Shown: positions 50,396 through 51,469 of the stretch, one piece after another
How positions within the stretch are numbered: the first letter of the stretch is position 1
Layout: the number at the start of each line of letters is the position of its first letter
Source of the DNA: Escherichia coli
Lineage (GTDB): Bacteria; Pseudomonadota; Gammaproteobacteria; Enterobacterales; Enterobacteriaceae
Strand: one strand, 5' to 3'
Assembly (NCBI RefSeq): GCF_013315695.1
Contig: NZ_CP054353.1
Length of the DNA stretch: 64,000 nucleotides
The notes under the pieces: generated by a model
What the model saw: the letters and a program-made list of their open reading frames with translations, nothing else
Database searches by the model: none
Told to the model about the DNA's origin: nothing
Made by a program: the position numbers and the translations under genes

Positions 50396-51469
50396 ATGGT
50401 CCATCCTTTTTTACAGGTTCAGAATATGACTGGCAAATTACGCTTTGAAGTGAACGATAACCAGGGCTGTTTCATATTTCCGGAAACCTGGTTTGGCTCG
50501 TTGCTGGATGAGTTTGAAGAACTGATTGATGCATACGATGCGGATGAAATCAGCGAAACAAGTTACATCAACAAACTCAGGCGCCTTGCCCGACAGGAGA
50601 ATGACTTTATTGATGTACACGCTCACTTGGCATACGTATTTCTGGAGCAGAATGCCCCGCGTAAGGCGCTGAATGCTGCCCTTAAAGGGCTGGCAATTGG
50701 CAATCGTCTTATCCCTGAAGGTTTCAGTGGCAGAATCATCTGGATACATCCTGACAACCGACCTTTTCTTCGTGCCCTCTATGCGGCAATCCTGGCAAAT
50801 GCACATTTACAGCGTCATCAGGATGCCATCATGCTCATTGAAAAAATACTGGATTACAATCCCGAAGATAATCATGGTGCACGCTGGCTACTGGGACCGG
50901 AACTGTTACGCACTGGCGCTCATGAACAGGCACGCCATATACTGCAGGAACATGCAGATGAATTTTCACCTTACTGGTATGAACTCGGCCTTCTGCATTT
51001 TCTTAATGGGGAACTGGTAAAAGCTGCAACTGCATTTCGTCGCGGCTTTGCGGCAAATACTTACATCGCAGAAATACTGTGCGGAAATCTGCATCCATTT
51101 CCACTTGCTGTATGGCATAACTTTTCAGGCGGTCCGGATACTGCCGAAGATTATTATGCCACATACCACCCGTTATGGGGGCAATATCCGGAAGCATTGC
51201 TGTTTGTAAACTGGCTCTATAATCATTCCTCTGTGCTGCATGAACGGGCAGAAATCATTAAATGCGCCGAAATGCTGATGCAGGAAGATGATTTCGAAAT
51301 ATGCGAAAGTATTTTAAGACAGCAGGAGAAGTTGCGTGAAAGAATTGATGAGACGCTTTCTGAGAAAATTGTACAGAAATGCAGAAATATGAATGGTGAA
51401 TATGTCTGGCCCTGGATATTGCCGTTTTCAGCGGCAGGCATGAAACATACTGGCATACAGTATCAGTAG
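50396..51469 (+). CDS. Hypothetical protein with TPR-like helical repeats (island cargo)
   Basis: 357 aa ORF (start may be the MTGKLRF Met at 50426); TPR-like segments such as YELGLLHFLNGELVKAATAFRRG; followed by a terminator. Confidence 0.55.
   Translation: MVHPFLQVQNMTGKLRFEVNDNQGCFIFPETWFGSLLDEFEELIDAYDADEISETSYINKLRRLARQENDFIDVHAHLAYVFLEQNAPRKALNAALKGLAIGNRLIPEGFSGRIIWIHPDNRPFLRALYAAILANAHLQRHQDAIMLIEKILDYNPEDNHGARWLLGPELLRTGAHEQARHILQEHADEFSPYWYELGLLHFLNGELVKAATAFRRGFAANTYIAEILCGNLHPFPLAVWHNFSGGPDTAEDYYATYHPLWGQYPEALLFVNWLYNHSSVLHERAEIIKCAEMLMQEDDFEICESILRQQEKLRERIDETLSEKIVQKCRNMNGEYVWPWILPFSAAGMKHTGIQYQ

Follow-up and report, generated by a model that had tools for sequence, protein, structure and literature searches.

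sisA of an Escherichia coli pheV island: identity, predicted helical fold and mobile-element relatives of a ShiA-family gene

The 64,000-nt stretch of the Escherichia coli contig NZ_CP054353.1 analysed here (the window) carries, directly behind the integrase of a pheV island, an open reading frame (ORF) at 50396-51469 that an initial annotation had described as an uncharacterised protein with helices resembling tetratricopeptide repeats (TPR). We have found by sequence comparison that this ORF is sisA, an E. coli gene named earlier, which is the copy of the ShiA/SisA family carried by the pheV island; gene and family have thus been known before, and the term uncharacterised does not hold for a shiA homologue with published infection phenotypes. 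Taken together with this identity, the explanation that accounts best for the observations, and that we regard as probable though well short of certain, is that SisA is a cytoplasmic protein-binding adaptor acting inside the bacterium, and that its published anti-inflammatory effect is indirect. What appears to be new, as judged from the literature searched, is the distribution of the family on mobile elements and its fold resembling that of the eukaryotic protein TCF25.

Identity and extent of the gene

The ORF has been identified as sisA because five independent lines of evidence concur. The two sisA primers for quantitative PCR printed by Hagan et al. 2010 (PMC2978726) each find a single exact match in the window, one at 50648-50667 and the other at 50926-50950. 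The gene following the pheV integrase of the uropathogenic strain CFT073 encodes a protein identical to the window SisA at 345 of 347 residues, and ShiA of Shigella flexneri is identical at 289 of 347 (83.3%), a value equal to that quoted for the SisA-ShiA pair in PMC13340028, where the PGAP entry 'tetratricopeptide repeat protein' of 1,044 bp is also stated to be SisA. The best match in the AlphaFold database has been UniProt Q6KD66, a 'ShiA homolog' of E. coli with 100% identity. SisA of uropathogenic E. coli CFT073 is reportedly the shiA-like inflammation suppressor A described by Lloyd and colleagues in 2009. The CFT073 locus shares with the window the order of pheV, integrase, the gene itself, a small ORF and a phosphoethanolamine transferase gene split by an IS66 insertion, and its SisA differs from the window copy by two substitutions. 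At residue 67, one of these two sites and nearly invariant in the family, CFT073 SisA (locus L044, 8020-9060) carries Tyr, and the window copy carries His, as do at least 90% of the aligned family. A similar likeness has been seen to ShiA of the selC island SHI-2 of S. flexneri and to E. coli SisB, which comprise 347 aa, are encoded directly after a P4-type integrase and have been reported to attenuate inflammation; SHI-2 differs from the window, however, in its tRNA site, in its integrase (39-45% identical over two aligned segments) and in its cargo, which includes aerobactin.

The frame at 50396-51469 on the plus strand is, according to the ORF listing of the window, the maximal ATG-to-stop ORF of 357 aa, and in this respect the initial annotation stands. 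Its reading has nevertheless been corrected: the ATG at 50426 is, as far as sequence conservation can tell, the conserved and supported start, giving a protein of 347 aa and a gene of 1,044 bp. This start is supported because all homologues align from it, because the RefSeq annotation uses it as well, and because the longer frame is broken by upstream indels in other alleles, in which the context TTTTACAGG(C/T)TCAGAA(A/T/-)ATG has been kept. Across six sisA alleles, dN/dS has been found to range from 0.11 to 0.27, which reflects purifying selection and therefore argues for a real coding gene. The gene is also transcribed in human infection, as sisA mRNA has been detected in urine from six of eight patient isolates (PMC2978726). 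A terminator of its own had been ascribed to it; downstream of the stop there is a terminator-like hairpin with a weak T tract, as a consensus match only. The features of the gene and of the elements around it are as follows.

50426-51469, plus strand: sisA coding sequence of 347 aa plus stop (1,044 bp), for a ShiA-like protein with a predicted TPR/TCF25-like solenoid
50396-50425, plus strand: in-frame upstream extension of 10 codons, probably untranslated, given the second ATG used by homologues and RefSeq and the indels in other alleles
50294-50322, plus strand: sigma-70 promoter-like site, TTACCA-17-TATTAT, 5' of sisA, consensus match only
51541-51561, plus strand: terminator-like G+C-rich hairpin, about 70 nt past the sisA stop
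48632-48707, plus strand: tRNA-Phe (pheV), the island integration site, with speC and yqgA flanks as in annotated genomes
48905-50170, plus strand: P4-type tyrosine integrase of 421 aa (PHROG_1 integrase, E 1.6e-63), 66.5% identical to IntB of K-12

A conserved island head and homologues on mobile elements

In the window, speC, yqgA and pheV are followed by the integrase, a gap of 225 nt and the ORF at 50396-51469, which is indeed, as had been noted, the first gene after a P4-type integrase; this arrangement matches the published island order of tRNA, integrase, shiA and sulfatase ORF (PMC7371111). The gene sisA, whose family is not a housekeeping one, is present in 1961 of 5426 complete E. 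coli genomes (∼36%), with at most five copies per genome. The junction of int and sisA has been found contiguous in 1365 E. coli genomes, as compared to 1370 records matching sisA at ≥95% identity, and is hence intact in essentially every genome that carries the window-type allele. Diverged SisA alleles with 86-87% protein identity stand behind other integrases, only 41-42% identical, at selC and pheV. The placement beside P4-type integrases, for which a survey had been proposed, recurs in this way within the Enterobacteria only. At one sampled E. coli locus an IS1 element occupies the place of the integrase. On the other side of sisA, a convergent phosphoethanolamine transferase gene comes next in most sampled loci, sometimes in the form of another paralogue that is just 33% identical, and in 483 genomes sisA and the transferase gene adjoin without interruption. 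The leuX region of K-12 (L036) has kept intB, with the 66.5% identity to the window integrase given above, and yjgX, whose product is 90% identical to the window transferase; an IS2 element lies where the shiA-like gene would be expected, and no remnant of such a gene has been detectable at this locus. Since sisA moves with the integrase while the downstream cargo varies, it is part of a conserved enterobacterial island head, consisting of a tRNA gene, a P4-type integrase, the shiA-like gene and the convergent phosphoethanolamine transferase gene, and not variable cargo, which renders its former designation as the first cargo gene doubtful. On a contig of 3.5 kb labelled as a metagenome-assembled genome of 'Collinsella sp.' (L007), an 84%-identical shiA-like gene stands with tRNA-Sec and a P4-type integrase in the SHI-2-type arrangement; the contig is probably a piece of enterobacterial DNA misassigned in binning.

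Beyond the Enterobacteria, full-length homologues of ∼335 aa with 35-55% identity have been found in Beta- and Alphaproteobacteria, Verrucomicrobia and other groups, among them non-pathogens such as Azovibrio, Verrucomicrobium, Massilia, Roseiarcus and Rhizobium, and an exhaustive profile search has returned 245 cluster representatives at E ≤ 1e-30. All-against-all clustering of the neighbouring ORFs at 22 loci, with ORF calling that was crude in the high-GC loci, has revealed no neighbour partner conserved beyond the Enterobacteria, and tblastn has detected no P4-type integrase like that of the window within 10 kb of the non-enterobacterial homologues. The surroundings of these homologues are mostly mobile or rich in defence genes. 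In Azovibrio, the homologue lies upstream of an AlpA-like HTH_17 gene, with Fic, helicase and methyltransferase genes nearby; in Verrucomicrobium, AbiE, HipA and insertion sequence (IS) elements are found close to it; and further neighbourhoods contain Fic, TIR and DruA, or genes of integrative and conjugative elements (ICEs) together with HsdR of type I restriction-modification. One context resembles ordinary chromosome. Among 72,556 plasmid records the family occurs on 80, which are for the most part conjugative, and among 50,697 phage records it occurs on none. Some distant homologues (P0223, P0244, P0230, P0241) carry extra domains, among them PRiA4_ORF3 at the N-terminus (E 1.6e-15), a domain characteristic of mobile elements, an N-terminal domain of ∼140 aa without identification, and a C-terminal cysteine-rich segment.

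Klebsiella, Morganella and Pseudomonas amygdali carry Tn3-family transposons in which a ShiA-like gene is located between tnpA and tnpR, with its stop codon overlapping the tnpR start. The three segments concerned are these.

L039, 4501-6077
L028, 3325-4901
L040, 4501-6077

The pair of ShiA-like gene and tnpR has been kept even where tnpA is just 26% identical. Toxin-antitoxin passenger modules have reportedly been described by Lima-Mendez and colleagues in 2020 between tnpA and tnpR of Tn3-family transposons, and the ShiA-like homologues occupy this same slot and are apparently co-transcribed with tnpR. They differ from such modules, however, in being single genes without a toxin or antitoxin domain and with no known addiction phenotype. 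Literature searches have yielded nothing that links SisA or ShiA to Tn3 passenger genes or to defence systems, and the occurrence of the family as single genes on Tn3 and other mobile elements of non-pathogens appears to be unreported in the literature searched.

Predicted fold and function of SisA

SisA is a soluble, acidic protein of 40.2 kDa (pI 5.3), in which no transmembrane segment, hydrophobic segment or signal peptide has been predicted (maximum Kyte-Doolittle value 0.88). Its AlphaFold2 model (pLDDT 91.3, pTM 0.87) is ordered from about residue 6 and opens with a beta-hairpin (residues 6-17), to which ∼17 helices are joined; in this otherwise all-helical structure they form a solenoid of paired antiparallel helices, as in TPR proteins. 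The Pfam TPR matches on SisA itself are weak (best E 0.0017, none at 0.001), and TPR_19 is matched at E 0.001 by 14 of 49 family members. No enzyme and no specific family has been retrieved for SisA by searches of Pfam, NCBIfam, PADLOC, PHROGs and PDB sequences. None of the PADLOC-DB v2 defence models has matched it at E values up to 1, and the SctY model, which covers the class II type III secretion chaperones SycD/LcrH, gives 18.5 bits against a curated cut-off of 70. The initial annotation had recognised a helical-repeat protein without a catalytic motif, and with this the solenoid model and the searches for catalytic families agree. In the alignment of 49 homologues, with identities as low as 32%, 20 residues never vary and 43 hardly vary, many of them polar or aromatic; the conserved motifs are W..ENRPFLRA, NPxDNxGxR and RxGFxxNxYIAE, together with W230, W251, W263, R274 and W330, and include several invariant Trp and Arg residues. 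Such conservation exceeds what a plain scaffold would need and points to a specific binding surface, an active site that has escaped recognition being less likely.

The nearest solved fold is the core of yeast Rqc1/TCF25, which has been the best PDB structural match by two methods; in Foldseek, Rqc1 is the top match (E 7.5e-5) and gives the only long alignment with a low root-mean-square deviation, and the SisA model has the fold of the Rqc1 C-terminal core. The Pfam family Tcf25 (PF04910) matches one of 49 SisA family members (E 1.9e-5, residues 44-261, ∼220 residues). It also matches a shorter sister family of ∼280 aa in all five members examined, at best with E 4.4e-11; this sister family has the SisA motifs in common and is clearly homologous by hhalign (99.9%, E 3.7e-31). 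SisA itself does not match the Pfam Tcf25 model. Profile searches of PDB sequences, started from the family profile, the sister-family profile and an 80-residue motif segment, have never reached Rqc1 and have retrieved only generic TPR proteins, and the link to TCF25 is therefore drawn from the Pfam matches and the fold comparison only. On these grounds, remote homology of SisA and TCF25/Rqc1 is likely but unproven. The predicted character of a TPR-like adaptor without catalytic activity would be common to SisA and to the Rqc1/TCF25 core (PF04910, formerly DUF654), which belongs to eukaryotic ribosome-associated quality control. The two differ, however, in that SisA is just 14-17% identical and lacks the long disordered basic N-terminal region of TCF25; moreover, Listerin and ubiquitin are absent from bacteria. 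No paper linking ShiA or SisA with TCF25 has been found in the literature searched. Long homologues have also been considered as eukaryotic TCF25 and rejected as such, as they represent bacterial fusions, for example to PRiA4_ORF3.

ShiA in Shigella and SisA and SisB in uropathogenic E. coli have been reported to dampen early host inflammation (PMC13340028, PMC7371111). In the explanation that we favour, SisA, being soluble and acidic, would be a protein of the bacterial cytoplasm that binds a protein or peptide partner via its strongly conserved polar and aromatic surface, and the change in host inflammation would be an indirect consequence of this action within the bacterium. An adaptor role is the most likely one because no enzymatic domain has been found, and an action inside the bacterial cell is suggested by the lack of a signal peptide, by the treatment of ShiA as a predicted cytoplasmic protein in the literature, and by the occurrence of most family members in non-pathogens. 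Several points weigh against this explanation. The adaptor mechanism is argued from a modelled fold and from absent catalytic motifs, the many conserved polar residues could instead belong to an active site that has escaped recognition, no neighbouring gene has been found to recur as a partner from phylum to phylum, and in the LAA study of 2026 the deletion took in hes and part of atoS as well as sisA and so does not isolate an effect of sisA alone (PMC13340028).

A more specific form of an action inside the bacterium, and one that overlaps the favoured explanation, would be that the selected role of SisA serves the mobile element itself, as part of the recombination or maintenance module of islands, plasmids and transposons, be it by tuning the expression or activity of the integrase or resolvase, by stabilising the element or by guarding it against phages and rival elements, with the inflammation effect as a side effect. 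We rate this as plausible, though less probable than not. It is in line with the position of sisA directly after integrases that have diverged far more than the SisA proteins themselves, with the conserved slot and stop/start overlap in Tn3-family transposons, with the AlpA-like neighbour in Azovibrio and the distant copies among Fic, TIR, DruA, AbiE, HipA, type I restriction-modification and ICE genes, and with the conjugative plasmids and PRiA4_ORF3 fusions. Several contexts, however, lack an adjacent recombinase; tyrosine and serine recombinases are unrelated, which makes a shared specific cofactor unlikely, and sites adjacent to recombinases may just gather passenger genes. SisA has also given no PADLOC or PHROG match and the family no phage copy, and the role in phage interference that had been suggested for the gene thus lacks positive support, though some distant homologues do lie in defence-rich islands. 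One may go further and postulate that ShiA and SisA are bacterial members of a TCF25/Rqc1 superfamily and ancestrally stand-alone accessories of mobile-element recombination modules, not virulence factors, whose anti-inflammatory effect would be a by-product or a case of ubiquitin-system mimicry; this proposal we hold to be doubtful and offer as speculation.

The likeness to TCF25 also lends itself to a host-directed reading, in which SisA/ShiA would be an effector that mimics TCF25/Rqc1 and, having entered host cells, binds ubiquitin and/or a RING E3 ligase, biases the formation of ubiquitin chains and thereby blunts inflammatory signalling. The TCF25 core is known to bind the Listerin RING and acceptor ubiquitin (PMC12047659, PMC12215860), and reduced inflammation is the published phenotype, which together with the Rqc1-like fold and the Tcf25 matches of one family member and of the sister family speaks for such mimicry. 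Against it stand the failure of SisA itself to match the Tcf25 model, the missing N-terminal region, the absence of a signal peptide, the lack of any evidence for secretion in the literature searched, and the presence of most homologues in free-living, non-pathogenic bacteria. We also know of no functional type III secretion system in CFT073, and consider effector mimicry improbable. The same fold and Pfam similarity could, by analogy with the position of Rqc1/TCF25 on the 60S subunit, suggest a bacterial factor associated with ribosomes or translation. In Rhizobium rhizogenes (L029, 7705-8990; L030, 286-1655) an extra gene for ribosomal protein S21 precedes the homologue by 50 nt and is the sole translation-related neighbour that has been seen; this adjacency comes from a single species, however, no other translation genes recur nearby, and sisA is an accessory gene, present in 36% of genomes. 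E. coli is also not known to have the RqcH pathway. A role of this kind would be very improbable. Practically no credence can be given to the labels of quinone reductase, NADPH oxidoreductase or transporter that some ShiA reviews have used (PMC7545054 and PMC6174562, citing earlier work). Such labels are already contradicted, as no such family has been found in Pfam, NCBIfam or PDB searches and the confident all-helical solenoid has neither a nucleotide-binding fold nor transmembrane segments, so that 'quinone reductase' and 'transporter' are corrected by the fold and family searches. The transporter label has presumably arisen by confusion with the unrelated shikimate transporter of K-12, which is also named shiA.

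Genomic studies of E. coli and Shigella routinely take sisA and shiA as markers of virulence, and the mechanism has never been explained. The results given here advise caution in reading the presence of either gene by itself as a virulence trait. Testable leads are provided by the inferred role as a cytoplasmic helical adaptor, by the spread on mobile elements of non-pathogens and by the likeness to the ubiquitin- and RING-binding TCF25/Rqc1 core.

Further features of the island region

Downstream of sisA, the window contains a small ORF and a transferase gene that is interrupted by an insertion.

51612-51842, plus strand: ORF of 76 aa between sisA and the convergent transferase gene, 'hypothetical' in RefSeq, putative coding
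51829-52807, minus strand: 3' part of a YjgX-like phosphoethanolamine transferase gene, convergent with sisA, 95% aa identity to the intact gene of locus L032 and 90% to K-12 yjgX
52808-55264, plus strand: insertion of the IS66 family within the transferase gene, with ORFs of 134, 115 and 512 aa; CFT073 has this insertion too, annotated as ISEc22
55265-55793, minus strand: 5' part of the phosphoethanolamine transferase gene

The 76-aa ORF and the 3' end of the transferase gene share 14 nt, and the ORF shows 97-99% aa identity in loci whose SisA is just 86-87% identical. It has no match in PADLOC or PHROG, and for this reason the segment may represent conserved non-coding DNA or a terminator instead of a gene. 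The boundaries of the IS66 insertion have been mapped by comparison with the intact transferase allele, and no terminal inverted repeats have been found there with the settings used in the repeat search.

Three features on the minus strand have been noted further downstream. A full-length Rfam match to the Hfq-binding small RNA isrC lies at 59330-59452 (97.4 bits, with a gathering threshold of 39), and an ORF of 199 aa at 63273-63872 is possibly fimbria-related. Between them, at 61251-61802, an ORF of 183 aa resembles a MarR-type regulator, and a MarR-family gene has been annotated at a similar distance in strain ECO11.
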